From NCBI RefSeq assembly GCF_013315695.1, contig NZ_CP054355.1: a stretch of 64,000 nucleotides of DNA, one strand, 5' to 3'. How positions within the stretch are numbered: the first letter of the stretch is position 1; each line of letters begins with the position of its first letter. Below the pieces are notes generated by a model. That model did not search any database. It worked only from the letters and a program-made list of their open reading frames with translations, and was not told the origin of the DNA. Positions 4,609-28,959 of this stretch are shown here, one piece after another. The position numbers and the translations under genes are program-made. The DNA is from Escherichia coli (GTDB lineage: Bacteria > Pseudomonadota > Gammaproteobacteria > Enterobacterales > Enterobacteriaceae).

Positions 4609-4615
4609 ACCATGG

Positions 4616-5392
4616 ATGATGAATATTCTCCACTTCTCACAGTCGGTAAAATGGAGCAGCTGGTTTATCTGTTCTCTACTGCTTCATGGACTGATTTTCC
4701 TTGCGTTTATCTGGCGTTTTTCCGAAGTTCAGCCCGCTATGTCTCCTGCACCGGCGATCATGCTGCAATGGGCAGAAATTATAGAGGCTCCTTCTTCTCC
4801 ACTTTCGCTTCCGGTGGGAATCGCTCAACAGGAGTCCGCAGTGACAGAAGAAAAGCAACAAACTGAGGACAGACAACAACGTCCTGTCACTGAAGACAGT
4901 GATGCAACCATTGAAATAACTAGGAAGAAAAAGTCATCCGATGGAGAAAAGAAAAAGACACGTCCACCTCGTAAGATAAAGGCTCAAACCAGCGACAGCA
5001 ACCCCACAGCCGTTTCCAGTAATGCTGCACCTCAGGCTCTGGTCGAATCGTCCCGTATTGCTGCGCCTTTTAACAGTGACTCAACAAAGCGAGATAATTC
5101 TGAGGCATCTTGGGAAAGCAGAGTAAAAGGCCACCTAAACCGTTATAAACGTTACCCTGGCGATGCCAGAAAACGTGCACGAACCGGCACAGCCGTCGTG
5201 ACTTTTACCGTAAACACGGAAGGCACTATTGTCAGTAGTTTCTTGGAAATCTCTTCAGGAACCTTTTCTCTTGACCGCGAAGCTATTGCTGTTTTAGAAC
5301 GCGCTCAACCACTTCCCAAACCACCGCCTGAAATATTGGAGGGAGGATTATTTAAAGTAAAAATGCCGATTACCTTTAAGTTGAAGGAGTAA
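4616..5392 (+). CDS. cjrB: TonB-family energy transducer (CjrB-like)
   Basis: N-terminal membrane anchor, charged linker, C-terminal TonB-like domain (..GTAVVTFTVNTEGTIV...PLPKPP); 258 aa. Confidence 0.65.
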   Translation: MMNILHFSQSVKWSSWFICSLLLHGLIFLAFIWRFSEVQPAMSPAPAIMLQWAEIIEAPSSPLSLPVGIAQQESAVTEEKQQTEDRQQRPVTEDSDATIEITRKKKSSDGEKKKTRPPRKIKAQTSDSNPTAVSSNAAPQALVESSRIAAPFNSDSTKRDNSEASWESRVKGHLNRYKRYPGDARKRARTGTAVVTFTVNTEGTIVSSFLEISSGTFSLDREAIAVLERAQPLPKPPPEILEGGLFKVKMPITFKLKE

Positions 5393-5560
5393 AGGGATAA
5401 TTGGCCGTTCAAGTTCATTTAACTGAAATTTAATTTTCATTTTTATGCTGAACATTTTATCAAACTTTTCCACTGTCAAAAAAATCAAAAAGACAGTAGA
5501 ACATAATTAATAAACAAATAGTTATACTTATCTTTATTAATATTATACCCAAGGAAATTT

Positions 5561-11133: not shown

Positions 11134-11175
11134 GTTCACAGATAAAACACTCTCCAGGAAACCCGGGGCGGTTCA

Positions 11176-11738
11176 CTTGGACTTAAATAGCTATAAACGT
11201 TTGTTGAATGGATGTATTTAGCGATAAAATCAGTATAAAAACCGTTATCAAAGAAGATGGACGTATACCCACCCAGACCATAGCTTTTAGTATCGCCATA
11301 ATAGCTGCCGCTCAGCTCTGCATTGGTACTTGTATGGGTAAATATTAAGCCAGTGTATAGCATTGCTGATTCAATTCTTATGCCTTTGTCTGCACCGAGT
11401 TGCAGGTGGTTGTATGTATTCTGATAACCGTCAGTGCCACTCCCCTGACCGAGCATATAGCGTCCCCAGACCCCGGCTTCTCCACTGTCGCGAATGTCCC
11501 CCATACGTTTATTGAGGTTATTCATTTCTGTAGAGAAAAGGCGGTAGCTGCTATTAGCAAAACTGGCCGCCGTACTGACTGCTTTTTTATCAGGCTCTGA
11601 GTTAAAGCCAATAATTGCCAGATTTGTACCGTTACCGTTATCACTAGTACCAAGTATCGGTGTTACGTTACTGAGCCCCGTTTTCTGGCTTATTGCCGAG
11701 AACATACTGAAATCGGTACCATCCGGTGCTTCAATTAG
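11176..11738 (-). pseudogene. autotransporter beta-barrel domain fragment trapped between IS629 and IS5
   Basis: Gly/Tyr/Ser-rich beta-strand-like sequence ending in aromatic residue; both ends cut by IS elements. Confidence 0.35.
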
Positions 11739-12934
<1,196 letters not shown>

Positions 12935-13569
12935 CTAAAGGCGTCTTTGGCTTCGGTCAGCGAACACTGCTGTTTTTCTTTGCAGGACGGTGAATCTTTG
13001 TAGTCCGTCATCTGCGCCAGCAGCTGATAGCTGTCGTCAAGCTGCATCTGGCTGCGCTCTTTTTCCATCGCCTGCACCGCTTTCTGGCTAAACGCCGCAG
13101 AGTCATCGGTGATCACCGGATTAAACGTTGGGTCCATCGTGCCCATTTTTTCCTGATGATGTACCGGAATGTCGCACCCAAGGAAAGCGCCGGTGATAAA
13201 GAATTGTGCCGTCGCAACGGTGCGTTGCAGACTGTTGGCATAGGTATATACCGTGTCCGGCGTCGGGCATTCGCCTGACGTGACCATCCCCAGCTCCGCC
13301 AGCCATTCTCGCATGTAGTGGCCCATATAAATTTCCAGCACACCGCCTTTCGTGGTGAGCTGCCCGCCGGGCACATCCCACTCCGGCCACTGATTCGGCG
13401 TGGACTGCTCCAGCACGCTGCCATTATTGGCCAACGGCGCGCGCAAGTTGTGTCGGCTCATCATCAACACTTGTTGCAGTTGATAACCTTCCGGCGTTGT
13501 CTGCGCTTGCGCGGCGGACGACAATAAAACAGCCCCTGCCACAGCGGCGGCGAGTATCAATTTTTTCAT
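12935..13569 (-). pseudogene. agp: glucose-1-phosphatase (histidine acid phosphatase) 5' fragment, truncated by IS5
   Basis: Signal peptide plus RHNLRAP (RHGxRxP) histidine acid phosphatase motif and Agp-like N-terminal sequence; reading frame runs into the IS5 end. Confidence 0.6.
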
Positions 13570-13690
13570 CCCTACAACCTCTTGTTGTTATCAATCCTCA
13601 TAGAGTGTGACAGAAATATGACATTTTTCCGGGAACGGTTTCGCAAAACGGGAGATTCCAGAAGATAACCGGCAGGTCAGCGTGTTCCGG

Positions 13691-14176
13691 TTACTCCGAG
13701 ATAAAAACCTCATACTTAATATTGCGGGCGCAATAAAAAGTGCCGTCCGTCAGATACAGTTCACGAAATCGCGTGTTATCAGAGATGTTGTCCAGCAGGG
13801 AACGTTCCGTATCGACAAATTCTTTTTGCACGCGGTAATGAACGGCGTTCTCCGTTTCAAAAGAGACATATTCCGTGGTGGCGTAGGGCTTATTTTTTGA
13901 TTTCACGTACACGATATATTGCACGGTACTGGCCGTCAGCCCCGTTTTCGCCGCGATCTCTTTGAGACTCAACGTCTCAGAGGCATAAAGCGCCTGAACC
14001 TGCGCTATGCGTCGGTGATTATACGCCGTCACCCGAAGGCTCAGTTTCAGCCGATAGGCCATATTCCGCACGGCGGTAATATTAGTGTGAAGCAGTTGCG
14101 CTATCTGCTCTGTCGTGAGGATGCCCGCGTTTTCCCGCAGAATCGCAAGGCTTTCGTCGTTCCAGATAAATGCCAT
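13691..14176 (-). CDS. putative DNA-binding protein with two helix-turn-helix-like segments
   Basis: 161 aa, no signal peptide; 25 bp downstream of the thioredoxin gene on the same strand. Confidence 0.4.
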   Translation of the reverse strand: MAFIWNDESLAILRENAGILTTEQIAQLLHTNITAVRNMAYRLKLSLRVTAYNHRRIAQVQALYASETLSLKEIAAKTGLTASTVQYIVYVKSKNKPYATTEYVSFETENAVHYRVQKEFVDTERSLLDNISDNTRFRELYLTDGTFYCARNIKYEVFISE

Positions 14177-14200
14177 TGGGTATCTCTCCGTACGCGTCGT

Positions 14201-14686
14201 TCATCGCGCCGCCAGGCGCGCAAACGTGGTCTCTAACTCAGACGGCTTACGCATACCCTGGTGTAGCTCCAGAACGCGTCCTTCGGAGTCAATCAGTACG
14301 GAGGTCGGCGTGCCGATCACCTGATAACGTTCCTGGGTAATGTTGAGCTGATCGCGCACCACCGGATAGGTTATCTGATGTTTTGCCAGCAGATCGTTGA
14401 TCCTGACCGTTTCAGGGTCGGTATTGACCGCCACAACCACCACTTTATCGCCCCATTTTTTGCTCAGCGCTTCCAGCGTGTCCATTTCCGCTAGGCACCC
14501 CCCGCATCCCGCAGACCAAAAATTCAGGTACACCGCCTTTCCTTGCCAGCGTTCAAGGCCTGACTCCTGGCCTTGCAGATCAAACGCCGCCAGCGCCGGG
14601 GCCGGTGCCCCGACCGCCAGCTTTTCTTCTTTACACCCGCTTATCAGGATCGCCGCCGCGAGTAACAGCACATTATGCCAGCGCAT
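14201..14686 (-). CDS. TlpA-like thiol:disulfide oxidoreductase lipoprotein
   Basis: Lipobox ILISGC; thioredoxin fold with CGGC active site (WSAGCGGC). Confidence 0.65.
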   Translation of the reverse strand: MRWHNVLLLAAAILISGCKEEKLAVGAPAPALAAFDLQGQESGLERWQGKAVYLNFWSAGCGGCLAEMDTLEALSKKWGDKVVVVAVNTDPETVRINDLLAKHQITYPVVRDQLNITQERYQVIGTPTSVLIDSEGRVLELHQGMRKPSELETTFARLAAR

Positions 14687-15368
14687 GTTGATTGGCCTCC
14701 TCACCCAGATATTTACCGTGTTGCAGCCGCAGAATACGGTCGGCAAACTGCCCAAGCGCAGGGTTGTGCGTCACCATCACAATCGTGCGCCCCTGACGAT
14801 GCAGATCGGTGAGCAGATCCAGCACCCGCTGCTCATTCTCTTCATCCAGGTTGCCCGTCGGTTCATCCGCGAAAATAACCGGCGGTTCGTTGACCAGCGC
14901 CCGGGCGATACACACACGCTGCTGCTCACCACCGGAAAGCTGGCTCGGCAGGTGCGTCACACGATGCCCAAGCCCTACCTGTTCCAGCACCTTCCTCGCC
15001 GCCGCTTCATCCACCACGCTGTGGTAATGCTGGGCGAGCATGATGTTTTCCAGCGCAGTTAAGAACGGGATCAAATGGAACTGCTGAAATACCAGGCCGA
15101 TTTTCTCGGCGCGAAAGCGACGGCGCCCCTCTTCATCCAGCGCGGCGGCATCGGTGCCATCAAGAAACACCTGCCCTTCCGTCGCCGTATCAAGGCACGT
15201 CAGAATATTCATCAGCGTGGTTTTACCAGAACCAGAAGCGCCCATAATGGCGACAAATTCACCCTGCGCAATGCGCAGATTAATGTCATCCAGGGCGGTA
15301 ACGTCACCGAACCGTTTGTATAAGTGGCGGGTTTCGATCGCCACCTGAGGGATATGCGTAACGGACAT
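14673..15368 (-). CDS. ABC transporter ATP-binding protein (MacB/LolD-type)
   Basis: Walker [10 protein letters not shown], signature LSGGEQQR, Walker [12 protein letters not shown]. Confidence 0.85.
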
Positions 15369-15372
15369 GGCG

Positions 15373-16533
15373 CTACTCTCCTTTCAGCACTTTAGCAGGC
15401 TCGACGCTTACCGCGCGTCGCACCGGAACAATCGCCGCCAGAATGGCGACCAGTAAAGACAACACCAGAGTAATGGGCAACACCGGCAGACGCAGTGAAA
15501 TGGCGGCATTAAACACCGTTAATCCCAACAGTTGCGCCAGCAAATATCCCAGCACCCAGCCGCACGCCACCGCCGCCAGCGCGATGATGCTGGTTTCCAG
15601 CAGAATTTGCCGCACGATATCGCCGTTGCTGGAACCAAGCGCTTTTTGCAGCGCAAACTCGCGCGCCCGCTCGCCGACAATCGCCATCAGCGTGGTATTC
15701 ACGCACAGCGAAGAGAGCGCCAGAATCACGATCGAGACCAGTCCCATCAGACCTTTAATTTTATCCAGCACCTGCCCTTCGGAAGCAGAGACCTTACGCA
15801 CCGGACGAATCTCCAGGTCAGGATACTGCGCCTGCAACCGGCTGGCATAGTTCTCCACCTGGCCGACATCGTTACTGACGCTCAGCAAGCCGTGGCTGAT
15901 TTTGCCCGGCTGATGCAGCCAGGCCTGCGCCACGTCGAGGCTGACGATCAGCATGTTGTCCGTCGCATCGCCAGACTCCACAATGCCTTTAATCTGCAAA
16001 TTCTTACGCTGATTGTGATCCACCAGCGTGATGCTGTCGCCCGGCTGCACGTTGAGGCGTTCCGCCAGTTTGACGCCGATCATCGCATTACGGTCGTCAA
16101 AACTAACGCCAATCCAGCTACCGGTGACCTGCCAGTACGGCACCAGTTTTTGCAGCGACTCGAACCACACGCCAACCATCACCACTTTTTCCAGCTCGGT
16201 ACGCGCCATGCCGTACAACCACGGACTGGCGCCATGCACCAGCCCCTGCGGCGCCTGATCGAGAATGCTCTGCAACTCCTGCTGCGGCATACTGGAACCG
16301 TGCCCCGGCCCGATGTAAAAATTCGCGCCGAAGGTGCGCAGTTCTTCGCTCATTTTGGTGTTAATGTCGAACCAGACGGCAGAAAGCGCCGTCACGATGG
16401 TCGCCCCCACCATCAGCGCGGCAAACACCACGCTGACCCGCTGAAAACGCAGACGCAGCGCCCGCCACACCAGCAGCCAGAGCATGGTACGTTTAGCGGC
16501 CATACAGCACCTCCACAGGATACAGCCGGGCAA
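15373..16533 (-). CDS. ABC transporter permease (FtsX/MacB-like)
   Basis: N-terminal TM, large periplasmic domain, C-terminal FtsX-type 3-TM bundle. Confidence 0.7.
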   Translation of the reverse strand: MPGCILWRCCMAAKRTMLWLLVWRALRLRFQRVSVVFAALMVGATIVTALSAVWFDINTKMSEELRTFGANFYIGPGHGSSMPQQELQSILDQAPQGLVHGASPWLYGMARTELEKVVMVGVWFESLQKLVPYWQVTGSWIGVSFDDRNAMIGVKLAERLNVQPGDSITLVDHNQRKNLQIKGIVESGDATDNMLIVSLDVAQAWLHQPGKISHGLLSVSNDVGQVENYASRLQAQYPDLEIRPVRKVSASEGQVLDKIKGLMGLVSIVILALSSLCVNTTLMAIVGERAREFALQKALGSSNGDIVRQILLETSIIALAAVACGWVLGYLLAQLLGLTVFNAAISLRLPVLPITLVLSLLVAILAAIVPVRRAVSVEPAKVLKGE

Positions 16534-17776
16534 TCCGCCGGGCCGGGAACCAGGTGCCGATCAACGCAATCAGTACCGCAATCACCAGTACGCACGGCAC
16601 CACAATCCAGGCAAAATTAAGCGGCGCGTCGAAGAGCATGACGCCAATCGCTTTCGCCAGCCCCCACCCGGCAATACATCCCAGCGCACCGCCAGCCAGC
16701 CCGCTGGACGCCGCTTCCAGGTAGAACAGCAGCATAATTTGCCACTGTCGCGCACCCAGCGCTTTCATCAAACCGATCTCTTTGGCGCGTTCCATAATGG
16801 TGCTGGTCATCAGCGAGGCGATCCCCATTGCGGAAGCCACCAGCGCCGCGACGGTAACGACCGCCATCAGCAACTGAATTTTATCGATCACCACCCCTTC
16901 GGACGCCGCGACCTGCCATACCGGGCGCACTTCCGCACCGGAAATCGCCTCTTCCAGCTGATGCGCGATCGACGACACATAGGCCGTGCAATACCAGAGG
17001 TCGTACTCTTCGGCATTGAGCGCGTCCAGGTTTTCCCGCGCGCGGCGGGACAGTTCGTTTTCCGGCACCGTCAGCGCCGAGACGCGAATCGCCTGCACTT
17101 TTCCGGGGAGCCCCAGCAGGTGCTGTACCGTGCTTAGCGGCATCACCAGTTGGTTATCTTCATCGCCGCCGCTGGAGAGGATACCGCTGACGGTGACCTG
17201 CACTGCTTCGCCTTCGGTACGTAATGTCAGCTTATCACCGGGTTTCCAGCCCATTTGCCGCGCCAGCGCGTGCCCGACTAAGGTCTGCGGCTCTGCGCCT
17301 GCGGGTTCCTGCGGCCAGTCGCCGGTCACCTGCCAGTATGGGCTGACCGTTTTCTGCCCCGTCTCATATCCCTCTTCATCAGGAATATCCACTGGCTGAC
17401 TGAAGAAAGTGCCCAGAATCCGCACTGGTTCTCCCTCCACGCTGGCTTCGCCGCCGAGCATCGGCGCAAACCCGACAATGTTGTTTCGCCAGAAGATATC
17501 TTTGATGTTCGGCAGCTCGGCTTCATCAAGAAAATCCTGACCGGAAAGCGGATTACTGCTCTCACTAAACAGCGCGGGCAGCGCAGCCTGTCCGGCGGGT
17601 TCAATCAAAATGTTCGCACCATAAGACTTCAGCTCTCTGGACATTTTGTCGCCGATATCAATGGACACCGCCAGCAGCGCCGAGATCAGGCTGGAGGCCA
17701 GAAAAACGGTGATTATCGCCAGCACTTTGCGGCGTAAATTGCGCCCCCAGGATTGTCGTAACATCCGCCACAGCAT
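16493..17776 (-). CDS. ABC transporter permease (FtsX/MacB-like), second copy
   Basis: Same architecture as the adjacent permease; overlaps it by about 40 bp. Confidence 0.7.
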   Translation of the reverse strand: MLWRMLRQSWGRNLRRKVLAIITVFLASSLISALLAVSIDIGDKMSRELKSYGANILIEPAGQAALPALFSESSNPLSGQDFLDEAELPNIKDIFWRNNIVGFAPMLGGEASVEGEPVRILGTFFSQPVDIPDEEGYETGQKTVSPYWQVTGDWPQEPAGAEPQTLVGHALARQMGWKPGDKLTLRTEGEAVQVTVSGILSSGGDEDNQLVMPLSTVQHLLGLPGKVQAIRVSALTVPENELSRRARENLDALNAEEYDLWYCTAYVSSIAHQLEEAISGAEVRPVWQVAASEGVVIDKIQLLMAVVTVAALVASAMGIASLMTSTIMERAKEIGLMKALGARQWQIMLLFYLEAASSGLAGGALGCIAGWGLAKAIGVMLFDAPLNFAWIVVPCVLVIAVLIALIGTWFPARRIARLYPVEVLYGR

Positions 17777-17778
17777 GA

Positions 17779-19158
17779 TTATTCCTCCCTCATGTCGGCA
17801 GGAACAAACTGCTCCGGCGTTTCACGGAAGCGTTCATAGTTAGCCTCTGACGAGAAGAACCAGGTCTTGCCGCCATAGCTGTATTTGTAATCGGCTGAGG
17901 TATTGGTCAACGTTGAACCATCGACCGGATCGGTCACTTTAATAGTCATGACCGTCGAGAAGTAGTTCACCCCTGTCGCCAGTTCTTTACCGGGGATCAC
18001 CAGCTCTTTTTCATCATTGTGCCAGTTTTCAATCGGCACCGGGTTACAGCCACCGGCCTTGCCGATAGACGGAATAAAAATATGCACTCCGCAGGCGACG
18101 CAGATAACCTGATTGCCCTCCATGACATAACCCTGATCGCCGCACAGCAGGCAGGCGTCGAACACCACGCCAAAACGCAGCTTGTCGGGATAGCGGTTAA
18201 TCACGAAGAAGCGCACCGCTTTGCCATCGTCCGCCACCCAGACGAAACGATGCAGTTTACCGTCACGAAGCTGTTCAACCGGCAGGCGCACCATGCCATC
18301 GCTCCCCAGCGTTACGGGCACGGCTTCAGAGAGTTGCGGCGGCTGCGAGGCCACTTTATCCCACCACAGTTGGCCTGCGATAACGACCACCGCGCAGCCG
18401 ATTGTGACCAACCACAGCCGCAAAGCGTTGCGACGCTGCGCCAGCGCCAGACGGTGAGCAATCGGTTCTTCGGTTTCCCGCGTCTGTCGAAAAGCCCGCA
18501 ACAGCGCCGGAAGCCAGCACAGCGCCAGGGCCAGCAGCAGCGCGGCTCCCGCCCAGTTATACAGCGCCGTGTTATTTGTGACTTTCGCCACGAAGCTCAG
18601 CAGTGATTTTCCCAGCGGAACAACCTGTAATTTCATCAGCAACAACAGCAGGTTGCCGCTCAGCGGCAGCCAGATCATCACCAGCAGAATCAGCGTTAAC
18701 GGCCAGTACAGGCCGCGAATACGCCGCAGCAGCATCGCGCAGAGTACGCCCGCCAGACAGAGGATCGCAAAAGCGAGAACGACGGCCGTCAGGTTTAACA
18801 GCAGGTCAGTATTCAGCACATGCGTACTGGTCAGCCCGCCCAGATTAGGGTCCAGCGCCCAATGGCGGGCAGCGCCGAAAATCAGAATCCCCTGCCACAG
18901 ATAGCGGATACGCGTTGAAGCCCACCAGAAACTGAGGACAAACAGCAGCGATACCATGACCTCCGCCCCAACCAGCAGCAGTTGTACCGGTTGGCTGCCG
19001 TGAATAAACAGTCCCGCCAGCACGCCGGCAATCAGCCCGGTCAGCAGCGTCCAGGTCAGCGGACGTAAAGAGGGAGGATCGTTTCGACTCCAGAGAACAC
19101 CGGAAAGAAGCGCAATGCAGAAAAAGACCTGTAGCGTCGTGACGAAAAAGTAACTCAT
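17779..19158 (-). CDS. polytopic membrane protein with C-terminal Cys-cluster and YHS-like domain (Cj1660-like)
   Basis: Multiple hydrophobic helices; C-terminal CLLCGD...CVACG...GGC and ..YGGKTWFFSS..ANYERF. Confidence 0.5.
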   Translation of the reverse strand: MSYFFVTTLQVFFCIALLSGVLWSRNDPPSLRPLTWTLLTGLIAGVLAGLFIHGSQPVQLLLVGAEVMVSLLFVLSFWWASTRIRYLWQGILIFGAARHWALDPNLGGLTSTHVLNTDLLLNLTAVVLAFAILCLAGVLCAMLLRRIRGLYWPLTLILLVMIWLPLSGNLLLLLMKLQVVPLGKSLLSFVAKVTNNTALYNWAGAALLLALALCWLPALLRAFRQTRETEEPIAHRLALAQRRNALRLWLVTIGCAVVVIAGQLWWDKVASQPPQLSEAVPVTLGSDGMVRLPVEQLRDGKLHRFVWVADDGKAVRFFVINRYPDKLRFGVVFDACLLCGDQGYVMEGNQVICVACGVHIFIPSIGKAGGCNPVPIENWHNDEKELVIPGKELATGVNYFSTVMTIKVTDPVDGSTLTNTSADYKYSYGGKTWFFSSEANYERFRETPEQFVPADMREE

Positions 19159-19261
19159 AACTTCGACTCTGTACGGCGGGTTGAATTAAGCGACGGGCAT
19201 ATGATCGGTCTGACCAACGCGCCAGAAGGGGGAATCCTCCTGGCGCGTTGGTTAGTCGGTT

Positions 19262-19792
19262 TTAGTTCAGACCGACATATTTAAACTCGTAGCTCACATC
19301 AAACGGTTTCCACCAGCGGCCTACGCCTGTTTCGCTGTCAGTATGGCGATGCATCCCGGCTTTTGACGGCGGTTCAATGTGGTAGGTCACTTTATAGTTG
19401 CCCACGCCCATCATTTTGATGTTCGCGCCATAGTGCGGGCCATCGCTGGCAACCATCGGCATGAAGGTGCCTTCCTGTTTTTCGCCCGTGTCGTTGTTGA
19501 CCAGGGTGTAGCTGATGGTCAGGTACGGGATCCATTCCCCTGCGCCAAAGCCGTTTTTATTGCCTTCTACAGCGTGGATATCCGCTTCAAGGTGAACATC
19601 GGCTTTTGCTGCCGGTAAGCCCATGCCGCGCGGTTCCATATCAATCGGTTGCAGGTAAACGGCCGCCAGCTCCATTTCATTCATGGTGACAGGCTCGCCT
19701 GCCGGGTACTCTTTAAAAGCAAACGCGGCTGGCGCAATGAAAATGCTGGCCATCACTGCGCTGGCAATCAGGGTTTTCTTCATGGTCATCAA
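19262..19792 (-). CDS. fetP: P19-family periplasmic iron-transport protein (FetP-like)
   Basis: 176 aa with signal peptide; immediately 3' of an FTR1 permease as in P19/FetP systems. Confidence 0.6.
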   Translation of the reverse strand: MMTMKKTLIASAVMASIFIAPAAFAFKEYPAGEPVTMNEMELAAVYLQPIDMEPRGMGLPAAKADVHLEADIHAVEGNKNGFGAGEWIPYLTISYTLVNNDTGEKQEGTFMPMVASDGPHYGANIKMMGVGNYKVTYHIEPPSKAGMHRHTDSETGVGRWWKPFDVSYEFKYVGLN

Positions 19793-19829
19793 ACGTATCC
19801 TCTCGTCTAAAACAACGGCTATACAACGA

Positions 19830-21776
19830 TTATGGGTTATTTTTTATCGTCTCCCCGGGAACCGCGCTTTTGCGCCGCATCACCCACAGCGCCACCAGCG
19901 CCGCGAGCAGCAATACGACCTGCGGTAACAACGTTTCCACGTAGGGATAAATCCCCAGCCAGCTGATTTCAGGGAAGCCGTTAATCAACGTAGGCTGGAA
20001 CAGTTTGCCTTCCACCAGTTCCAGAACGCCTTTGCCCGCAAAGACGAAGGCCATCAGATACATGAAACTGCCGGTAAACATAAAGAAGGGTTTCAGCGGC
20101 AGGCGCACCACTGAGTAACGCATCACCAGCCAGGCGAGCAGCAGCACCACGCAGCCAATCACAAAACCGGCGCCAATCGCCATATGGCCGGATACCGTGT
20201 TTGCATCGCCAATCAGAGCGTAATAGAACAGCACCGTTTCCGCCCCTTCGCGGTACACCGCCAGGAAGCTGGTCAGCCATAGTCCGACCAGGGAGCCTCG
20301 CGACAGGGAATGAGACAGTTTGCCTTCCAGCCAGGCTTTCCAGTGGCGCGCTTCCACTTTGGACAGCAGCCAGTAACTCATAAAGAACAGCATCACGACG
20401 GCAATCAGCATCGTTATGCCTTCCAGCAGTTCACGGCTGGCGCCGGAGTTAGTAAACAGCATCTGGAAGATAGCGGCGGTGATGACGCTGGCGATCAGCG
20501 CCACAATTACCGACTGACGAATAAGCGGCAGCTTATCCTGATGGTTGTTTTTCACCATGTAGGCCACGATTGCCGCAACAATCAGCAGCGCTTCCAGCCC
20601 CTCGCGCACGATGATCATCAGACTATAGAGCAGCAGACTCCACTGGGTTTCTTCGCCTTCGCCCAGCATCGTCACGGCTTTTTGCAGATCCTGCGCCAGC
20701 GCGCTGGCCTCTGCATTCAGGCGCTCAACCGGCTGACCGGCCTTCATCAGACTGACCAGGCGGGTAAAATACGCCTCCAGCGTGGTTTTAAATGCCGAAT
20801 CGCGAGAGCCGATTTTGTTTTCCATGCCGCTGGCTTCGAAGCGGTCGAAGTAGGTATCCTGGATATCCAGAATCGCATTCTTCGCATCGCCGCCCTGATA
20901 GCGCGCTATCGCGTCCTGAATGCTCTGGTTAATTCCCGTCGTCACCTCAGCCCAGTCGGTGCGGTTATTTCCCTCGTCCGCCGCCGGAATGTTGTCTGCG
21001 CTTTGCGCTGCGGCAACCTGCTGATCGTCACGGGTGGTTGGCAAGCCGGGTAAGATATCCTCGATATCCTGTAGCAGCGTAGTGACCTGATAGGAGACAT
21101 CGTTGAGATGGTCAGGTTGCGCGGTCAGCGCAATCAGGGATGAGAATTGTTGGTTAATGGAGGCGGCATCTTTTGCAGAACGGTTTTGTCTGAGGGACAT
21201 CTCCATCTCAGAGTTTTTAAAGCCCTGATAGTGCGCCTGTTGAACGTGCTGACTGGCAACGCTGTAATTCCCGGCCTGATATTCAGTGACCGCCTGCGCC
21301 AGCAGATCGTCGATCGTCCTGAAACTCTCCTGCCAGTGAACGGCAATGTCGTCCCTGGACAGCGCGTTGTGCTGCTCTTCGGCCACCAGACGATGTCCGC
21401 CATCCAGCACCGGTTCCACTTCGCGCAGTGCGGCTTTCAGCCAGTCAATGCGCGCCTGGACGTCAGCGAGCGGTTTTTTCTCGCCAATCATTCGACGGAT
21501 CTCGCCGAATGCGCTCTCCATCTCGTAACTTTTGCGCGCGGAAATGTTGATGCGGATCGGCCCTTCCAGGTTCTCGAACACCTCAAAATAGGCCATTTGT
21601 ACCGTGCGGCGCGCCTCGTCGGCATGCTGTTGCTGATAAAGTTCCGCTGTTTTATCAAGACGTTGCTCGATATCTTCAATCAAAGGCGCATAATTCGTCG
21701 ACGCCCAGACACTCATGCTTATAAACAAGCCAAAGAGAGTAACCAACAAAGAGTTACGGAAGTTACGCACGTGCAC
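19830..21776 (-). CDS. fetM: FTR1-family iron permease with large N-terminal periplasmic domain (FetM-like)
   Basis: 648 aa; two RExxE motifs (REGLE, REGAE) in the C-terminal membrane domain. Confidence 0.7.
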   Translation of the reverse strand: MHVRNFRNSLLVTLFGLFISMSVWASTNYAPLIEDIEQRLDKTAELYQQQHADEARRTVQMAYFEVFENLEGPIRINISARKSYEMESAFGEIRRMIGEKKPLADVQARIDWLKAALREVEPVLDGGHRLVAEEQHNALSRDDIAVHWQESFRTIDDLLAQAVTEYQAGNYSVASQHVQQAHYQGFKNSEMEMSLRQNRSAKDAASINQQFSSLIALTAQPDHLNDVSYQVTTLLQDIEDILPGLPTTRDDQQVAAAQSADNIPAADEGNNRTDWAEVTTGINQSIQDAIARYQGGDAKNAILDIQDTYFDRFEASGMENKIGSRDSAFKTTLEAYFTRLVSLMKAGQPVERLNAEASALAQDLQKAVTMLGEGEETQWSLLLYSLMIIVREGLEALLIVAAIVAYMVKNNHQDKLPLIRQSVIVALIASVITAAIFQMLFTNSGASRELLEGITMLIAVVMLFFMSYWLLSKVEARHWKAWLEGKLSHSLSRGSLVGLWLTSFLAVYREGAETVLFYYALIGDANTVSGHMAIGAGFVIGCVVLLLAWLVMRYSVVRLPLKPFFMFTGSFMYLMAFVFAGKGVLELVEGKLFQPTLINGFPEISWLGIYPYVETLLPQVVLLLAALVALWVMRRKSAVPGETIKNNP

Positions 21777-21790
21777 ACCGCCAAAGAATG

Positions 21791-21812
21791 CAAATGATAA
21801 TTATTATCATAT
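21791..21812. promoter_or_regulatory. Fur box upstream of the fetM-like operon
   Basis: aatgataattattatcat, near-palindromic match to the Fur consensus, about 15 bp upstream of the fetM start. Confidence 0.6.
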
Positions 21813-22062
21813 CTTTTTGTCGCGTTGTACATGACCTGGATCATAAAAATGTCAGCAGACGACAAGTTATGTAAATTTATTTCATCAAATCGTGATGAAC
21901 ACACACATTATGCGTTGATAAAAGGGACGTTATCTCCCTGTTTTTCTCATGGAATTAACGGCAAGGCAGGCGCGGTAACAGAGGAATAAATCCCCCTGCC
22001 GACAGTGATATTATTCATTATCGGCAGGCAGAAATAAAACGCGTTATTGCGTACAGCAATAT

Positions 22063-22824
22063 TCAAAGATTAAGGTTATTTCGATCGCTGGCAAGACGCT
22101 GTAAGAATTGACCATATCCCTGCGGCCCCATCCAGTAGTTAATACTTTTCTCAACGCCGGTTGATGTCAACGTCGCACCGGAAATACCGTCAACGGTATA
22201 TTCATCGGCATGTTCAGGTTTATCCTGTACTATTTTCAATGCAGGATGTCCGCTGTTATCTAATAATCGTTTCCCTGGCCACTGTTTGCGCCAGTTGGCG
22301 TCTTCCACCCTAGCCCCCAGAAACGGCGTTTCCCGTTGCTGATAATAATACAGATTTCTCACCGTACGACCGTCCAGCCCCAGAGCAAGAAACGCATGCA
22401 TCATGGATTTCGCGCCCTTACCGGTAACTGGAATGATAACCTGCTGAATTTCATTATTTTTATCTTTCACAAAGAACACATCCGCCACCGTACAGCGCTG
22501 ACGAACCTGCGCTGGGTCGCGTTCAGGGGCAAGTTTTTCACACTTCTGCCGCGCGGTGTCCGCGCTGCTGCCAGCCACCAGTTCGCCGGAATCTAAATTA
22601 ACATGGCGTTGAATAATATAACGATGATAGAGCGTTTCGACTGATTTTTTATCCTGGGTCTCTGATTTCATCAGGCCCGCAGCGTGTAAAATTGCCGCCT
22701 GTTTTTCCTCCTCTGTCGGCTCCGTCATTTCTCCCTGGAACAGCATAAACCATGCCGCCGCCGCAACAAAAATAAGGACACAAAGCACCATCATTGATGC
22801 AACAATAATTTTACCCTTGCGCAT
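22063..22824 (-). CDS. orphan NqrC/RnfG-type FMN-binding domain protein, membrane-anchored
   Basis: N-terminal TM; C-terminal ..VIIPVTGKG..SMMHAFLALGLDG..YYQQRETP..DGISGATLTSTGV.. as in NqrC flavinylation region; no other nqr genes nearby. Confidence 0.6.
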   Translation of the reverse strand: MRKGKIIVASMMVLCVLIFVAAAAWFMLFQGEMTEPTEEEKQAAILHAAGLMKSETQDKKSVETLYHRYIIQRHVNLDSGELVAGSSADTARQKCEKLAPERDPAQVRQRCTVADVFFVKDKNNEIQQVIIPVTGKGAKSMMHAFLALGLDGRTVRNLYYYQQRETPFLGARVEDANWRKQWPGKRLLDNSGHPALKIVQDKPEHADEYTVDGISGATLTSTGVEKSINYWMGPQGYGQFLQRLASDRNNLNL

Positions 22825-23035
22825 TGAATTGTTATCCCTGTCAAAATGGAAATCGAAAAAATCGCCTGAACGTATCACAGACTTTCATTCAATTAAAACA
22901 GATATGCCATTATCAATTCAGGTTTGCAACGTCAGGCAGCGGTAAAAAATAATAACTGGCGTCGGTAAAAAAGCAGCAAAAATAACAGAAAACACGCTCT
23001 CCGCTCGTTTTACACATCCTTACAATGGGTTAAAA

Positions 23036-23058
23036 AATGCCGGGTTTCCCCGGCACGC
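23036..23058 (-). terminator. Rho-independent terminator after scsD
   Basis: Minus-strand hairpin gccggggaaacccggc followed by a T-run. Confidence 0.55.
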
Positions 23059-23060
23059 TA

Positions 23061-23567
23061 TCAAAACATGGCTGCCCGCCACAGACGTAACTTCATGCCC
23101 CAGTAGCTGGTCCAGCCGCTGGTCGTAGTTACCACCTGCCCCTTCGACACCACCACCAGCGTTGGCGTGACGCTGATTTCCCAGTTTCGTGATATCTCAC
23201 CGCCGCTATCATTCACGACGGGGAACGTCACCCTTTTACGCGATAACCAGCGGGAAACCTCCCCGTCATTACCGGAACGCAGCGCGATGGTCATGACGCT
23301 CTCCCCTTCCGACTGCAAACGGGCGACATCCGGCGTGGTGAAACGGCAGATACCGCACCAGCTCGCCCAGAAGTAGAGCAGCACCGGGCGTTCTTCACTG
23401 ATCGACGCCAGCGTTACGGTTTCCCCGTCCAGCGTATGCAGCGGCGTGCTGTCAAACATGGCCGGCATCTGCGGAGAACGCCAGACATCCAGCAGGATTA
23501 TCACGCCAGCCAGCAGAACCAGTAAGATCGCGCCTTCACGCAGCCAGCGGCGCAGTTTACTGAGCAT
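23061..23567 (-). CDS. scsD: ScsD-like membrane-anchored thioredoxin-like protein
   Basis: 168 aa, N-terminal TM, WASWCGICR CxxC motif. Confidence 0.65.
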   Translation of the reverse strand: MLSKLRRWLREGAILLVLLAGVIILLDVWRSPQMPAMFDSTPLHTLDGETVTLASISEERPVLLYFWASWCGICRFTTPDVARLQSEGESVMTIALRSGNDGEVSRWLSRKRVTFPVVNDSGGEISRNWEISVTPTLVVVSKGQVVTTTSGWTSYWGMKLRLWRAAMF

Positions 23568-23727
23568 GGGCCACCGCCAGTTTTTCTTTCACCACCGCCT
23601 CAAGGGTCTCCCACGATACCGCGCCGGGGATCATCTCGTCGCCAATGATGGTTGCCGGCGTCCCCTGAACGCCAACCAGCCGGGCGAGTTGCAGATTGGT
23701 GCTCAACGTCTCCATGCTTTTCTCATC
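23557..23727 (-). pseudogene. scsC: ScsC (DsbA-like) C-terminal fragment, truncated at IR copy B
   Basis: ..GVQGTPATIIGDEMIPGAVSWETLEAVVKEKL.. typical DsbA-like C-terminus; overlaps the scsD start. Confidence 0.5.
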
Positions 23728-23765
23728 GGGGTCAGTTTGGATATAGAGAATTATTGTACTATAAG
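23728..23765. repeat. Tn3-family-type 38-bp IR-like sequence (copy B)
   Basis: GGGGTCAGTTTGGATATAGAGAATTATTGTACTATAAG; same orientation as copy A. Confidence 0.5.
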
Positions 23766-24318
23766 GACTTCCCCGGCATGTCAACGCCGGTGTTTACGGT
23801 TTCTGTCTGCACTATAGTAAAAAAATAAAGGGGAGAGACTGCGGTACTATAAACGATCATGATGAATCGTCATCGATTCGGACCCTGATGAAAGACGCTC
23901 GTGAGGCTCTAGTTCGTTAGTCGGGTACACTTGCCCTGTACAATAAGCAGATATACCTCACGGGGTCTAACCCTTTATCATCAACGAGTTGCAGATCAGA
24001 TGGTCATACAGCTTTGTACTTTAGCTGGCTGAGTACAACCTGAAATCATCACCGTAATGCAATGATGCCCAGCACAGTCTTGCATTTTTGGCAGCGATGG
24101 CAACAACAGCGCGCCAGTATCCTCTGCGTTCGACCAGTGAGCAGACCCAACGACTGAATAAATCAGTCCTTTTCTCCGCCCCGATCAGTACCGAGCGGGC
24201 ACCCTGAACCAGAAGTGTTCTCAGATACGAATCGCCAGCTTTCGTTATCCTGCCAAGCTTCGACTTTCCGCCGCTGCTGTACTGCGATGGTGTCAGTCCC
24301 AGCCAGGCTGCCAGCTGG
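23766..24318 (-). mobile_element. IS110/IS1111-family element 3' fragment (transposase C-terminus at about 24021-24318), truncated by IS26
   Basis: ..LAAWLGLTPSQYSSGGKSKLGRITKAGDSYLRTLLVQGARSV.. is an IS110-family C-terminal signature. Confidence 0.5.
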
Positions 24319-24687
24319 GGCACTGTTGCAAAGTTAGCGATGAGGCAGCCTTTTGTCTTATTCAAAGGCCTTACATTTCAAAAACTCTGCTTACCAGGCG
24401 CATTTCGCCCAGGGGATCACCATAATAAAATGCTGAGGCCTGGCCTTTGCGTAGTGCACGCATCACCTCAATACCTTTGATGGTGGCGTAAGCCGTCTTC
24501 ATGGATTTAAATCCCAGCGTGGCGCCGATTATCCGTTTCAGTTTGCCATGATCGCATTCAATCACGTTGTTCCGGTACTTAATCTGTCGGTGTTCAACGT
24601 CAGACGGGCACCGGCCTTCGCGTTTGAGCAGAGCAAGCGCGCGACCATAGGCGGGCGCTTTATCCGTGTTGATGAATCGCGGGATCT
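24319..24687 (-). mobile_element. IS26 partial copy (right IR plus 3' end of tnpA26), interrupted by the Tn3-family transposon
   Basis: IR ggcactgttgcaaa at 24319; ORF ends ...KGQASAFYYGDPLGEMRLVSRVFEM as in IS26 Tnp; identity stops at 24687. Confidence 0.8.
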
Positions 24688-24720
24688 GGGCTCCGTTTGG
24701 GAAACGGAAAATATTGTACG

Positions 24721-27708
24721 TTAAGGCTGTTTTTTGTACTGACTGACATCAACTGCTCGCAAAGGACGATACTTCCCTTCAGCCAGCTTCTTATTGTTTT
24801 TCCAGATATAGTCCCCTGTCAGATTAATGTGCTCCCAGCCCAGCGGAGACAAATGTGACAACAATTGCTCATTAATATGTAGCCCTTTCTTTTTCAGCAG
24901 GTTAATGGCGTTTTCTATATATACGGTATTCCACAAAGTGATTGCGGCAGTGAGCAGCGTAAGCCCACTGGCGCGGTAACTCTGGTTTTCAATACCACGA
25001 TCCCTTATTTCTCCCAGACGATGCATGAAGACAGCTCTGGCAAGGGCATTCCGGGCTTCCCCTTTGTTCAGACCTGCCTGAACCCTACGACGAAGCGCCG
25101 GATCGCGGAACCAGTCCAGCATGAACAGTGTTCGCTCAATACGACCAATTTCTCTTAACGCCTTAGCAAGGCCATTCTGTTTCGGATAACTGGTCAATTT
25201 TTTCAGCATCAGAGAAGCGGTCACTGTTCCCTGTTTTATTGAGGTCGCCAGTCTCAGAATTTCATTCCAGTGTATTTTTATCTCTTTGATATTCAGGGGG
25301 GTTGTGGAGATAATTGACTGTAGAGCAGGATAGTTATCAGCTTTACCTTGAATAAACAAACGTTTGTCATGCAGATCCCGGATCCTTGGGGCAAAAGCGA
25401 ATCCCAGCAGATGCATTAGTGCAAAAACATGCTCCGTGAAACCTGCTGTATCGGTGTAATGTTCCGTTATATCAAGGTCACTTTCGTGATACAGAAGACC
25501 ATCAAGTACGTGGGTGGAATCACGAACACGACTGATTACTTTGGTATAAAACGGACTATATTGATCTGAGATATGCGTATAAAACTGCACCCCAGGTTCC
25601 TGACCGTACTTCAAATTAACCTGACCGGCATAGCGCCCATGACTGCCAACCCTAAAATTCTGGCCGTCAGAGGATGAGGTGGAACCGTCTCCCCATAATG
25701 CCGCCAGCGGTCGTGACTTCTGGGCATTAACCAGTTCTGCCAGTGCAGCAGAGTACGTTTCATCACGGATGTACCATGCTTGTATGTTTTCCAGCGAAGC
25801 TCGTGTGGTTCCCGGACAGGACTCTGCCATTTTTTCCAACCCTAGATTGATGCCGTCCGCCAGGATAGTGGTTAGTAGTAAACGATTATCCTGAGGACGG
25901 ATTAGCGGATTCTTAAGATGAGTAAAATGTCGCGAGAAGGCAGTCCATCGCTCGACTTCATCAAGTATCTCTGTAATTTTGGGGTGCGGTAGCATGTTGT
26001 AAATCAGGTCGGCCAGGGGAGAGACTGTTGAAGGAACGCTGTTATCCAGTGGGGTGATCTTTACACCTTTATCTGAAATATCCACATCAGGAAGCTCCCC
26101 TGCGACAGCCATTGCGTTAACTTCCTCCAGACGGGAGGCCAGTAGAGTCAGTCTGGCATTAAGATAAGCCCCGCATTCTGTGCCAACAGGTAAATTTAAT
26201 AGGTTATTATTTAATAACTTTTCGAAATCATCGTTAGGCATAAGATAATCATCAAAGTTTTTGTAGCGCCGGGAGCCCCTGACCCAGATATCACCCGCCC
26301 GCAGCGCCCCCTTTAGCTCATTCATTGCGCAAATTTCATAGTATTGTCGGTCAATGCCTGAGGGGGTGACCACCATCTTTCTCCAGCTCTCAGGAATGAA
26401 ATCCAGTGGTGCCGATGCAGGAACCTTTCGTAGCTGTTTACGGTACATATCACGAATAGTTTCAAGGGCATCATTAAGCGGCAACGCTGCCGAAGTGGCT
26501 CTCAGTTGCAGGGCCGATAGAAAACGAAAAGAATATTTGCGCAATGTACTGAATTTTTCGGTAATAAGATGAAGCGGCTCAAAATTATCCTTACGTGCAA
26601 GAAGCTTTGTTTCCTCCAGACTGGCGACAAAATCGTCCCACGGTAACACTCGTTCAATAGCAGACAGAGGATCTTCGCCTGCATTGCGTGCATCCAGGAT
26701 AGCCTGGCCAACAGAAACATACTGACGTAACTTTTGCTGTATCAACTTGCCCGTTTTCTGAAGACGCTCAGCCTGCTGATGTTTTGCCCGACTGAACATG
26801 CTGCCTAGAATACGTTCATGCAGTTCTATAATTTCATCAATGATTGTGGCTCTGGCCTCAGTCAGTACACAGACCATCGTTGCGTATCGACGAGCAGGGG
26901 AAAAATCAGCCAGATCGCGACTGCTCATTTTGCGGCCCTCACGCGCGAGTTTCAGCAATCGGTTCTGGTGAACGGTTCTCTCCACTCCTTCCGGCAGCGC
27001 CAGAGCTTCAATAGCGTTAAGGCGGTCAATGTGTTGCAGGACATTCTTTCCATTGATTTTCCCTGGAGGTTGAAGCAGCCACGTCAAACGGGATATTTGT
27101 TTTTCATTTGTCACCAACAGGGCATCAAGCGCAGATTTATGCGTGATATCAAGGTGCGCATTCAGCGTTGTATACACCGTTTTATCACCCAGTGTCATTG
27201 CTTCTGCACAGGTACGTTCCAGAACATCAATGCCTGGAATAATAATTCGCTGTTGATGCAGGTACTTTAGTAACTCCTCTGCGATAAGTATGCCTCTGTC
27301 CGTTCTGGTAGACAGAGGGAGCAGATGCCGGATACATTCTTTCTGAAGTGCACCGTTAAAGGCTTTCAGTTCAAGATATCGATAAAGTTCCCTCATATGC
27401 TCACGTCTGGTGGTATCACGACCGGAAACGTATTCCTGCCAAAGTTCTGCTGATAACTTAAGTCGAGCGCCAATGGTTTTTAGCAATTTTGCGGGTGGGG
27501 ATGATTTTTTATCCGGGGCAAACCCAATACTTTTCAGATAACAGAGAAGAACGGCAAAACCAAACCGGCTGGCAGGTTTACGGTGAGCATTGATAATTGC
27601 CAGATCCTGCTCACTGAAATACGTCATTCGAGTCAGTGTTAACTCATCGTCTGGCAATGCCAGTAATGATTCTCTTTCCGATAGAGAAAGAATCTGCCTC
27701 CTTGCCAT
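24721..27708 (-). CDS. tnpA: Tn3-family transposase TnpA
   Basis: 995 aa; stop codon lies inside the terminal IR as in Tn3-family elements. Confidence 0.8.
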   Translation of the reverse strand: MARRQILSLSERESLLALPDDELTLTRMTYFSEQDLAIINAHRKPASRFGFAVLLCYLKSIGFAPDKKSSPPAKLLKTIGARLKLSAELWQEYVSGRDTTRREHMRELYRYLELKAFNGALQKECIRHLLPLSTRTDRGILIAEELLKYLHQQRIIIPGIDVLERTCAEAMTLGDKTVYTTLNAHLDITHKSALDALLVTNEKQISRLTWLLQPPGKINGKNVLQHIDRLNAIEALALPEGVERTVHQNRLLKLAREGRKMSSRDLADFSPARRYATMVCVLTEARATIIDEIIELHERILGSMFSRAKHQQAERLQKTGKLIQQKLRQYVSVGQAILDARNAGEDPLSAIERVLPWDDFVASLEETKLLARKDNFEPLHLITEKFSTLRKYSFRFLSALQLRATSAALPLNDALETIRDMYRKQLRKVPASAPLDFIPESWRKMVVTPSGIDRQYYEICAMNELKGALRAGDIWVRGSRRYKNFDDYLMPNDDFEKLLNNNLLNLPVGTECGAYLNARLTLLASRLEEVNAMAVAGELPDVDISDKGVKITPLDNSVPSTVSPLADLIYNMLPHPKITEILDEVERWTAFSRHFTHLKNPLIRPQDNRLLLTTILADGINLGLEKMAESCPGTTRASLENIQAWYIRDETYSAALAELVNAQKSRPLAALWGDGSTSSSDGQNFRVGSHGRYAGQVNLKYGQEPGVQFYTHISDQYSPFYTKVISRVRDSTHVLDGLLYHESDLDITEHYTDTAGFTEHVFALMHLLGFAFAPRIRDLHDKRLFIQGKADNYPALQSIISTTPLNIKEIKIHWNEILRLATSIKQGTVTASLMLKKLTSYPKQNGLAKALREIGRIERTLFMLDWFRDPALRRRVQAGLNKGEARNALARAVFMHRLGEIRDRGIENQSYRASGLTLLTAAITLWNTVYIENAINLLKKKGLHINEQLLSHLSPLGWEHINLTGDYIWKNNKKLAEGKYRPLRAVDVSQYKKQP

Positions 27709-27874
27709 ATAGTTATCCTTGTTAATTATTTAGTACGTTATTTTTGATGAAAAGGTTATTGCATAAGGGTACACCCTGATGCGAGATATAAAATGTGACC
27801 TCATACAAATAATGACATAACCTATATGCGATAGAATATATGCAACAACCTAAATGCGACAATGCGGTGAAAAA
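27709..27874. promoter_or_regulatory. res site / divergent promoter region between tnpA and tnpR
   Basis: AT-rich intergenic region with repeated atgcga-containing subsites. Confidence 0.5.
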
Positions 27875-28516
27875 ATGTTCATCAGAGCTTATTTAAGGGC
27901 GTCAACAGAAGATCAGTTTGCAGATCGAGCAAAAGAGATGCTGGAACAGTTCGTCCAAGAACGGGGGCATAAAATTGCCAGTTATTATCGGGAGAACATA
28001 AGCGGTACAAAACTTGACCGTCCGGAACTGAAACGCTTACTGATGGACAGTCACCGTAATGATATTTTGCTGGTCGAGCAGATAGACCGCCTGACCCGAC
28101 TGAGTAACAGCGACTGGATAACGCTGAAAAAGCAGATAGAACAACACGAACTGCGGATTGTCAGTCTGGATGTTCCAACATCATGGCAAGCCCTGTCAGA
28201 TAAAGATCCTTCACAATCAGATCCGATTACCCGCGCAGTGATAACTGCAATAAATAATATGCTTATAGACCTGATGGCCGCGATGTCGCATAAGGACTGG
28301 CTGAGTCGTCGCCAACGCCAAAAACAGGGAATTGAACGAGCTCATACGTTGGGTAAATACCGGGGAAAACAGGCCGATCAGGAACGTCATCAGAAAGTGT
28401 TGTACTACAGACAAGTAAAAAAACTCAGCATTAGAGAAACAGCAGATGCAACGGGCTACAGCACTTCGCAGGTTTGTCGCATTCAGGCTCTCTATAAAGA
28501 GGTTAAACCTGATTAA
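27875..28516 (+). CDS. tnpR: serine recombinase (resolvase TnpR-like)
   Basis: MFIRAYLRASTEDQ N-terminal serine-recombinase motif. Confidence 0.7.
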   Translation: MFIRAYLRASTEDQFADRAKEMLEQFVQERGHKIASYYRENISGTKLDRPELKRLLMDSHRNDILLVEQIDRLTRLSNSDWITLKKQIEQHELRIVSLDVPTSWQALSDKDPSQSDPITRAVITAINNMLIDLMAAMSHKDWLSRRQRQKQGIERAHTLGKYRGKQADQERHQKVLYYRQVKKLSIRETADATGYSTSQVCRIQALYKEVKPD

Positions 28517-28959
28517 AAAACAGCCTTAACGTACAATATTTTCCGTTTCCCAAACGGAGCCCTGCTAGCCTTTTCGTAATCATGCCATTGGAGATCATCT
28601 GGATTGATGTTAGGCATGACGTCTTGGCTGTAAAGCAAAAAATCAAGTGAGTCATCCATGATCTTCTCAAAACGCTTACTGCGGTTGTTTCTGTCACTAA
28701 TAGAGCCCGCCTGATACCACCTTTCCGACAACTGCCGATATCGAAGGAAGTGCTCATCCTCTTTCAGTTGATGAAACTGGTTCCTGATTTGTGCATCAAG
28801 CCGAATTGCCAGACCAGTAAAATCAGGTAACACAACCTTATGAGGGGCATTTTTGGGAGAAATCAGAGAAATGAATTCAGAAACCTGCATATCCTTGCTC
28901 TGAGGCCCGTAACGTTTATCAGAGCGGCGGGTGCCAATAAAAAAGCTTTCAATCGTCAT
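28513..28959 (-). CDS. hypothetical protein; 3' end replaced by Tn3-family IR sequence
   Basis: 148-aa ORF whose last ~16 codons are encoded within the transposon IR. Confidence 0.3.
   Translation of the reverse strand: MTIESFFIGTRRSDKRYGPQSKDMQVSEFISLISPKNAPHKVVLPDFTGLAIRLDAQIRNQFHQLKEDEHFLRYRQLSERWYQAGSISDRNNRSKRFEKIMDDSLDFLLYSQDVMPNINPDDLQWHDYEKASRAPFGKRKILYVKAVF

Follow-up and report, generated by a model that had tools for sequence, protein, structure and literature searches.

The FetMP-Fls iron-uptake cluster occupies a 10,793-bp island at positions 12935-23727 of the 64,000-nucleotide stretch of Escherichia coli DNA analysed here (NCBI RefSeq assembly GCF_013315695.1, contig NZ_CP054355.1; hereafter the window). 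All of its genes lie on the minus strand, and its G+C content of 55.2% compares with 46.8-48.0% in the adjoining plasmid DNA. Read in the direction of transcription, the island comprises a fragment of scsC, scsD, a gene for a flavin mononucleotide (FMN)-binding protein of the NqrC type, the seven iron-uptake genes fetM, fetP, flsD, flsA, flsB, flsC and flsT, then flsE and a truncated agp (Table 1). This is the content listed by the original prediction, which had been drawn from the DNA letters before any database search, and both the gene calls and the family assignments agree with it. From flsD through flsT the genes abut or overlap, with wider gaps between fetM and fetP (about 40 bp), fetP and flsD (about 100 bp), flsT and flsE (24 bp), and flsE and agp (122 bp).

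Table 1. Features of the island and of its two borders, listed in the direction of transcription of the island genes
Feature	Position	Strand	Description
Tn3-family-type terminal repeat (GGGGTC...TAAGG), right border	23728-23766	+	Adjoins the scsC remnant; occurs once in the window
scsC remnant	23557-23727	-	Last 56 of 207 codons; no start codon, no Cys
scsD	23061-23567	-	Intact; membrane-anchored thioredoxin-like protein, CGIC motif
Intrinsic-terminator-like hairpin	23037-23056	-	Directly 3' of scsD; 8-bp stem with 6 G-C pairs, TTTTT tail
NqrC-like FMN-binding protein	22063-22824 or 22063-22878	-	253 or 271 residues; P009 of pUTI89, labelled 'Na+ translocation'
Two sigma-70-like promoter matches	21831-21803 and 21823-21794	-	Both overlap the Fur box
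Fur box (putative)	21790-21808	-	16/19 to the 19-bp consensus; 13 bp upstream of the fetM GTG
fetM	19830-21776	-	FTR1-family permease; GTG start, long N-terminal periplasmic domain
fetP	19262-19789	-	P19-type periplasmic iron-binding protein, PF10634; directly downstream of fetM
flsD	17779-19158	-	Polytopic membrane protein; C-terminal FtrD-like Cys-rich domain and YHS domain
flsA	16493-17776	-	FtsX/MacB_PCD permease
flsB	15373-16503	-	FtsX/MacB_PCD permease (PF12704, PF02687)
flsC	14673-15368	-	ATP-binding cassette transporter ATPase of the MacB/LolD/FtsE type; those models E ~1e-62
flsT	14201-14686	-	Periplasmic TlpA/ResA-type thioredoxin, CGGC motif; NF002854 ResA, E = 4e-27
flsE	13691-14176	-	161-residue hypothetical protein
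agp remnant (published as flsF; the 'glucose-1-phosphatase' of pUTI89 and pRS218)	12935-13569	-	About the first 211 of 413 codons
IS5 copy, left border	11739-12934	+	Transposase 11807-12787; IS5 family NF033581, E = 7e-110

All seven fet-fls genes are intact and stand in the order expected of their families. FetM matches the EfeU/FTR1 models over residues 385-593, and its translation reads two REXXE motifs, REGLE and REGAE. Over the mature protein (residues 26-176), FetP has the same sequence as crystallised E. coli F11 FetP (PDB 3NRP/3NRQ; E = 9e-105); the sole difference from 3NRP falls on residue 25, the first of 152 aligned positions, and is probably a residue of the crystallisation construct. 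The same protein matches P19 of Campylobacter jejuni (3LZL) with E = 7e-59. FlsD carries Pfam matches to PF10080 (E = 3.5e-28) and PF04945 (E = 1e-16), and flsT is labelled TlpA family in plasmid records. We scanned one genome per bacterial species with FlsD, which yielded 66 Enterobacterales loci, and the order of the seven-gene core is identical in all 66. The prediction that this operon is an iron-uptake system of the Fet-Flp/P19 type is thereby upheld by the seven families in their order, by the 66 loci and by the identity of FetP to 3NRP.

The genes on either side of the core are in a different condition. The reading frame of the scsC remnant, followed in Citrobacter koseri, runs on upstream past 23727, the breakpoint of the remnant. 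ScsD is 99% identical to its C. koseri counterpart and 70-77% identical to those of other Citrobacter species. At the opposite end, the agp remnant is fused to 30 codons read out of IS5 and matches positions 1-217 of 413 of model NF007553, under the curated cut-off; the missing half would be the one with the HD motif, which is catalytic in histidine acid phosphatases. The stump of scsC and what is left of agp are almost certainly non-functional, and within the island scsD is the only flanking gene that could keep a function of its own. The gene after the operon, flsE, is present as predicted, although its proposed label as a helix-turn-helix (HTH) protein is not established: searches of Pfam and NCBIfam gave HTH matches below threshold only (best E = 0.003), and FlsE may be DNA-binding. 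Among the 66 loci, flsE was seen in Citrobacter and Intestinirhabdus alone.

A Fur box had been predicted in front of the operon, and a site with 16 of 19 consensus matches indeed stands just upstream of fetM. Three such sites occur in the 64-kb window, compared with 0.01 expected by chance. In 54 of the 66 loci the 200 bp upstream of fetM hold a best site with at most four mismatches, compared with at least six in coding controls of the same size, so the putative Fur site is kept across species where such a regulator would be expected. Of the other two Fur-box-like sites, both also 16/19, one (3638-3656) lies just upstream of a ChaN-family gene that opens a cjrABC-type haem/iron receptor operon (3691-7822, plus strand), and one (844-862) has a colicin-immunity gene on one side and a hypothetical gene on the other. 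As to a possible C. koseri origin of the neighbouring cjrABC-senB cargo, a look-up of the exact CjrC protein returned plasmid-like or insertion-sequence-flanked contexts only, in contigs of about 5 Mb (L081-L086), and no native locus. Positions 1001-2000 of the window have a G+C content of 31%, far under that of the rest.

The gene order and families of the core mirror those of two chromosomal systems, Yersinia pestis FetMP-FlpDABCT and the C. jejuni cFtr1-P19 system (FetMP-FetABCDEF, Cj1658-1665), both of which are Fur-regulated and require their downstream genes. This likeness, noted in the original prediction, is confirmed by the Yersinia and Campylobacter orders reported by Liu et al. (2018; PMC6083913), who find the arrangement conserved in 31 other species as well, and, for Yersinia, by the loci that we fetched. 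The Yersinia proteins are 55-89% identical to those of the island; the Yersinia loci fetched lack the upstream NqrC-like gene, flsE and the scs and agp flanks, and C. jejuni differs in having a second thioredoxin gene. Richardson-Sanchez et al. (2023; PMC10783030) and Liu et al. (PMC6083913) report that C. jejuni depends on the downstream genes.

Closer still are plasmid copies of the same DNA. The island is 100% identical to pCE10A and 99.9% identical to pUTI89 over all 10,793 bp, and the same DNA, differing only in its surroundings, makes up the FetMP locus of the uropathogenic E. coli strain F11 and, in pUTI89, pRS218, pEC14_114 and pCE10A, the P007-P018 block. Every gene of the block is named in the pRS218 paper (PMC4155114), with the same gene list as here. 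Liu et al. place the operon on Escherichia, Klebsiella and Shigella plasmids and on the chromosome in C. koseri (PMC6083913). Garcia et al. (2020; PMC7285068) gave the names fetMP-flsDABCTEF to the genes on the Salmonella Typhimurium plasmid pUO-StVR2; the cluster also lies on the genomic island GI-DT12. By their description, IS26 flanks that cluster, which includes a putative Fur box and is nearly identical to that of E. coli F11; the host replicon differs, being a derivative of pSLT. Deletion of fetMP-flsDA from pUO-StVR2 lowered growth and cellular iron under iron limitation, and also lowered epithelial invasion and intramacrophage replication (PMC7285068). The same authors cite Koch et al. 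(2011) for iron uptake by FetMP and for the Fur regulation of fetMP. The predicted mobility of this iron-uptake system is therefore a matter of published experiment (PMC7285068, PMC4155114, PMC6083913).

These homologies suggest how the transporter would work. When iron is scarce, Fur repression would be lifted at the promoter overlapping the Fur box, and fetMP-flsDABCT would be transcribed, perhaps together with flsE. FetP would bind periplasmic Fe2+ or Fe3+ and pass Fe2+ to the FTR1-type permease FetM for import, with FlsD, an FlsABC machine of the MacB type and the FlsT thioredoxin serving as accessory parts, as are required in Yersinia and Campylobacter. The present analysis supplies the gene identities and their order, the putative Fur site, and the donor with its breakpoints; iron uptake and fitness come from published work on identical, near-identical or homologous genes.

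Homology to Citrobacter chromosomes begins at 12935 and ends at 23727, so the borders given for the island in the original prediction are exact to the base. On the left, the IS5 copy ends at 12934. Its terminal repeats read GGAAGGTGCGAA(C/T)AAG at both ends, and its flanks, left TTAG and right CTAA (11735-12938), are reverse complements rather than a direct target duplication. IS5 therefore joins two unrelated DNAs and marks a recombination or deletion joint; its junction with agp falls at a TTAG native to agp, and on its far side lies a fragment of an autotransporter beta-barrel gene (11136-11753). On the right, the border that had been labelled IR copy B is the Tn3-family-type terminal repeat, which the window holds only once. 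The 3' part of an IS110-family element breaks into this repeat about 25-30 bp in and reaches 24318, with the C-terminus of its transposase at 24021-24365 (model positions 245-341 of 343). Elements of the IS110/IS1111 type are known to target Tn3-type terminal repeats. A 370-bp piece of IS26 (24319-24688), matching L001 and L079 among the loci compared, cuts off the IS110 relic at 24318/24319. The relic to the right of the island (23728-24318), made up of the Tn3-type repeat and the IS110 fragment, thus spans 591 bp here; in pUTI89 IS26 leaves 34 bp of it, and other copies keep 85 bp.

Adjoining the IS26 remnant is a compact Tn3-family element (24688-28562) whose 48-bp terminal inverted repeats are perfect and whose transposase (24721-27708, minus strand) has 995 residues. 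IS26 does not restart past 28562, so this element is not a simple insertion. Together with the longer right relic, it distinguishes the window from pUTI89.

The search for the donor led to the chromosome of C. koseri. Among the 66 loci, those of Citrobacter are the only ones to combine scsC-scsD upstream of the core with flsE and agp downstream of it. Starting exactly at 23727 and going inward, C. koseri NCTC10786 (locus L002) aligns at 98.7%; upstream of that point its sequence continues with the rest of scsC, then scsB, scsA and cbpA, giving the run cbpA-scsA-scsB-scsC-scsD-nqrC-fetM. Many small indels split scsB, scsC, nqrC and fetM in this record, with 13 gap columns in 6.9 kb relative to the window; because these genes are intact in five other C. 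koseri loci, the indels are probably sequencing errors and not signs of pseudogenes. Those five loci (L068, L069 and L073-L075, on contigs of 1.2-4.8 Mb) were recovered by look-up of the exact FlsE protein. Each aligns from 23727 to 12935 at 98.8-99.0% over 10,796 bp, with the alignment ending at both borders, and each holds a complete scsC of 207 residues and a complete agp of 413 residues, the latter followed by yccJ, wrbA, putA and putP. Mobile elements do not flank the block in these loci. We assign the five to C. koseri because outside the island they differ from L002 at 3 of 446 positions, compared with 77-83% identity to other Citrobacter species. Gene spacing is identical between the C. 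koseri locus and the island, down to the 122-bp gap between flsE and agp; the locus differs in its complete scsC and agp and in its neighbours, which are cbpA at the scs end and yccJ-wrbA-putA at the agp end.

Divergence within the block points to the same source. Between the plasmid allele and each chromosomal allele there are 105-126 substitutions, and between one chromosomal allele and another 97-105, except for the pair L068/L069 (1), so the plasmid allele resembles one more C. koseri strain and falls inside the strain-to-strain diversity of that species. Plasmid copies differ among themselves by 3-17 substitutions. The G+C content of the C. koseri flanks (55.5%) matches that of the island, as against 47-48% for the plasmid flanks. 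Colinearity with the whole island extends to seven loci of other Citrobacter species or isolates, which occupy the same chromosomal site at 72-85% nucleotide identity. In these (L003-L008 and L012, at about 15500-17100), two extra genes stand between flsE and agp, one for a 251-residue protein of unknown kind and one for a 247-residue ArsR/SmtB-like regulator, and neither has a counterpart in C. koseri or on the plasmid. As donors, C. amalonaticus, C. youngae, Citrobacter sp. MGH106, Citrobacter sp. Cu233 and a metagenome-assembled genome were rejected as relatives only, given their 72-85% identity and two extra genes; E. coli chromosomes were rejected too, matching agp only, at about 81%, among the matches listed.

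The island is thus the FetMP-Fls cluster of the pUTI89-type IncF virulence plasmids, and this cluster is very probably a 10,793-bp piece of the C. koseri chromosome acquired in a single capture. In the proposed history, a segment lying between scsABCD and agp in C. koseri would have been severed within scsC, where the Tn3-family-type repeat has its outer end, and within agp, at the IS5 end, and placed on an F plasmid; the junctions would fit an aberrant, F-prime-like excision of an integrated F plasmid between copies of mobile elements, and every plasmid copy would descend from that one event. The direction of transfer is chromosome to plasmid, because the flanking genes of the donor are intact, the donor site is free of mobile elements and diverged orthologues sit at the same position in sister species, which fits vertical inheritance within Citrobacter. 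We found no plasmid in PLSDB with C. koseri DNA beyond either border, whether more of scsC, scsB or agp-yccJ-wrbA, and the full-length matches among the 30 PLSDB records listed all span the query from end to end; a single capture is the best reading because the matches share their ends and no C. koseri DNA passes them. The central claim of the original prediction, that a chromosomal segment was captured onto a plasmid with a housekeeping-type gene cut at each edge, accordingly survives the comparison, and its proposal to seek the donor on chromosomes led to the scsABCD-agp region of C. koseri. A standard backbone arrangement in which scsC and agp are both intact was likewise absent from the PLSDB plasmids.

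Several points weigh against this history or soften parts of it. The mechanism of capture is read from the junctions only, and the original event has been overwritten by later insertion-sequence activity, because IS5 lacks a direct target duplication and the relic of the Tn3-type repeat is cut by other insertion sequences. About 1% divergence is left between the island and the chromosomal loci, and the donor may have been a relative very near to the C. koseri strains sampled. The species name given to the five additional loci would stand or fall with their near-identity to one C. koseri record, L002. For the function of the cluster, the Fur box is a match to a consensus and hence a putative binding site, and expression of this plasmid's operon is predicted from its genes.

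Of the other histories, we consider several independent captures from Citrobacter highly improbable. Five of the 858 PLSDB plasmids matching the block fall below 99% identity (four at 80-90% and one at 95-99%) and may be separate acquisitions, for example on Klebsiella plasmids (PMC6083913). The remaining 853 match at 99% or more, the full-length ones among the 30 listed end at the same two breakpoints, and plasmid alleles lie just 3-17 substitutions apart in 10.8 kb; the absence from PLSDB of C. koseri DNA past either border argues in the same direction. Even less probable is the reverse direction, in which the cluster would be native to F-type plasmids and C. koseri would have gained it by integration. 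Copies of the island do re-enter chromosomes: in two 4.8-Mb, chromosome-sized contigs (L070 and L077) a truncated, plasmid-type block lies next to IS26 or IS110, and the block has therefore moved back from plasmid to chromosome there. The C. koseri loci, however, have no mobile elements at the ends of the block and hold scsC and agp whole, and a plasmid without those halves cannot supply them. The diverged orthologues at the same site in seven other Citrobacter loci, the agreement in G+C between the island and the C. koseri flanks, and the roughly 100 substitutions between chromosomal alleles against 3-17 between plasmid alleles are likewise at odds with an origin on the plasmid. The idea that the block is kept mainly for copper tolerance through ScsC and ScsD, or for the phosphatase activity of Agp, and not for iron can be set aside as highly improbable: PMC4155114 does list ScsC/ScsD as 'copper tolerance' and glucose-1-phosphatase as 'virulence regulator', but scsC is here a 56-codon tail without a CXXC motif, scsA and scsB are absent and only scsD is intact, agp lacks its C-terminal half, and the seven fet-fls genes are intact, with published loss of function pointing to iron uptake (PMC7285068). 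The copper-tolerance and glucose-1-phosphatase traits assigned to these plasmids rest on gene stumps, and the assignments look unsafe.

Upstream of fetM, the island also carries an orphan flavoprotein gene. Its product scores 396 bits against NF003747 (cut-off 336) and aligns over its full length with NqrC of Vibrio cholerae (7XK3 chain C; E = 6e-49), sharing its N-terminal hydrophobic helix or membrane anchor and the SGAT threonine at which NqrC is flavinylated. The motif DGISGAT is kept in loci of about 20 species and fits the flavinylation motif D-x-x-[ST]-G-A-[TS], so that the protein has the predicted features of an extracytosolic FMN-binding protein flavinylated by ApbE. E. coli has ApbE and no Nqr. 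Neither in the window nor in the loci of about 20 species did we find nqrA, B, D, E or F near the gene, whose only neighbours are scsD and fetM; the product is an NqrC homologue that is not part of an Nqr pump or operon here, and it differs from the V. cholerae protein in standing alone beside an iron transporter. In some 20 species of the Citrobacter/Klebsiella/Raoultella/Phytobacter/Sodalis branch the gene is the immediate upstream neighbour of fetM, and it is absent from the Yersinia, Pectobacterium and Serratia loci. A 286-bp spacer separates it from fetM, it is a transcription unit separate from fetM, and by eye nothing convincing as a Fur box lies upstream of it.

One tentative possibility, which we consider rather doubtful, is that this protein is a partner of the transporter, a membrane-anchored, ApbE-flavinylated periplasmic carrier that would reduce Fe3+ or re-reduce FetP or FlsD for FetM. 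Its positional conservation in about 20 species and its intact flavinylation motif favour such a role; its own terminator, the want of a convincing Fur box and its absence from working Yersinia and Pectobacterium clusters speak against it. FMN-binding and thioredoxin partners of P19 systems have been described as alternatives, the former mostly in Gram-positive clusters and the latter in Proteobacteria (PMC6083913, PMC8238504); the island has genes for both. If the role is real, the Citrobacter/Klebsiella/Raoultella branch would use flavin and thioredoxin modules together, and the plasmid would have brought the flavin module into E. coli.

The block is widespread. It matches 858 of 72,556 PLSDB plasmids, of which 812 cover at least 80% of it, and carriers include pUTI89, pRS218, pCE10A, pEC14_114-type plasmids and the SE15 plasmid. 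Of 5,426 complete E. coli genomes, 810 (about 15%) carry it; among the matches listed, E. coli chromosomes contribute their own agp only, at about 81%, and coverage of the block comes from plasmid records. The FetMP-Fls island and its mobile iron uptake have been described before, and our additions are modest: the naming of C. koseri as the donor in one capture event, and a conserved orphan NqrC-like flavoprotein. A literature search for a published C. koseri origin of the plasmid block returned just a remark concerning senB, some older papers being out of reach. The system is an established fitness and virulence cargo of pUTI89-type plasmids in pandemic lineages of extraintestinal pathogenic E. 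coli. Neonatal meningitis can be caused by C. koseri and also by the E. coli K1 strains with this plasmid (RS218 and CE10), and an iron-uptake island common to C. koseri and E. coli K1 is epidemiologically suggestive.

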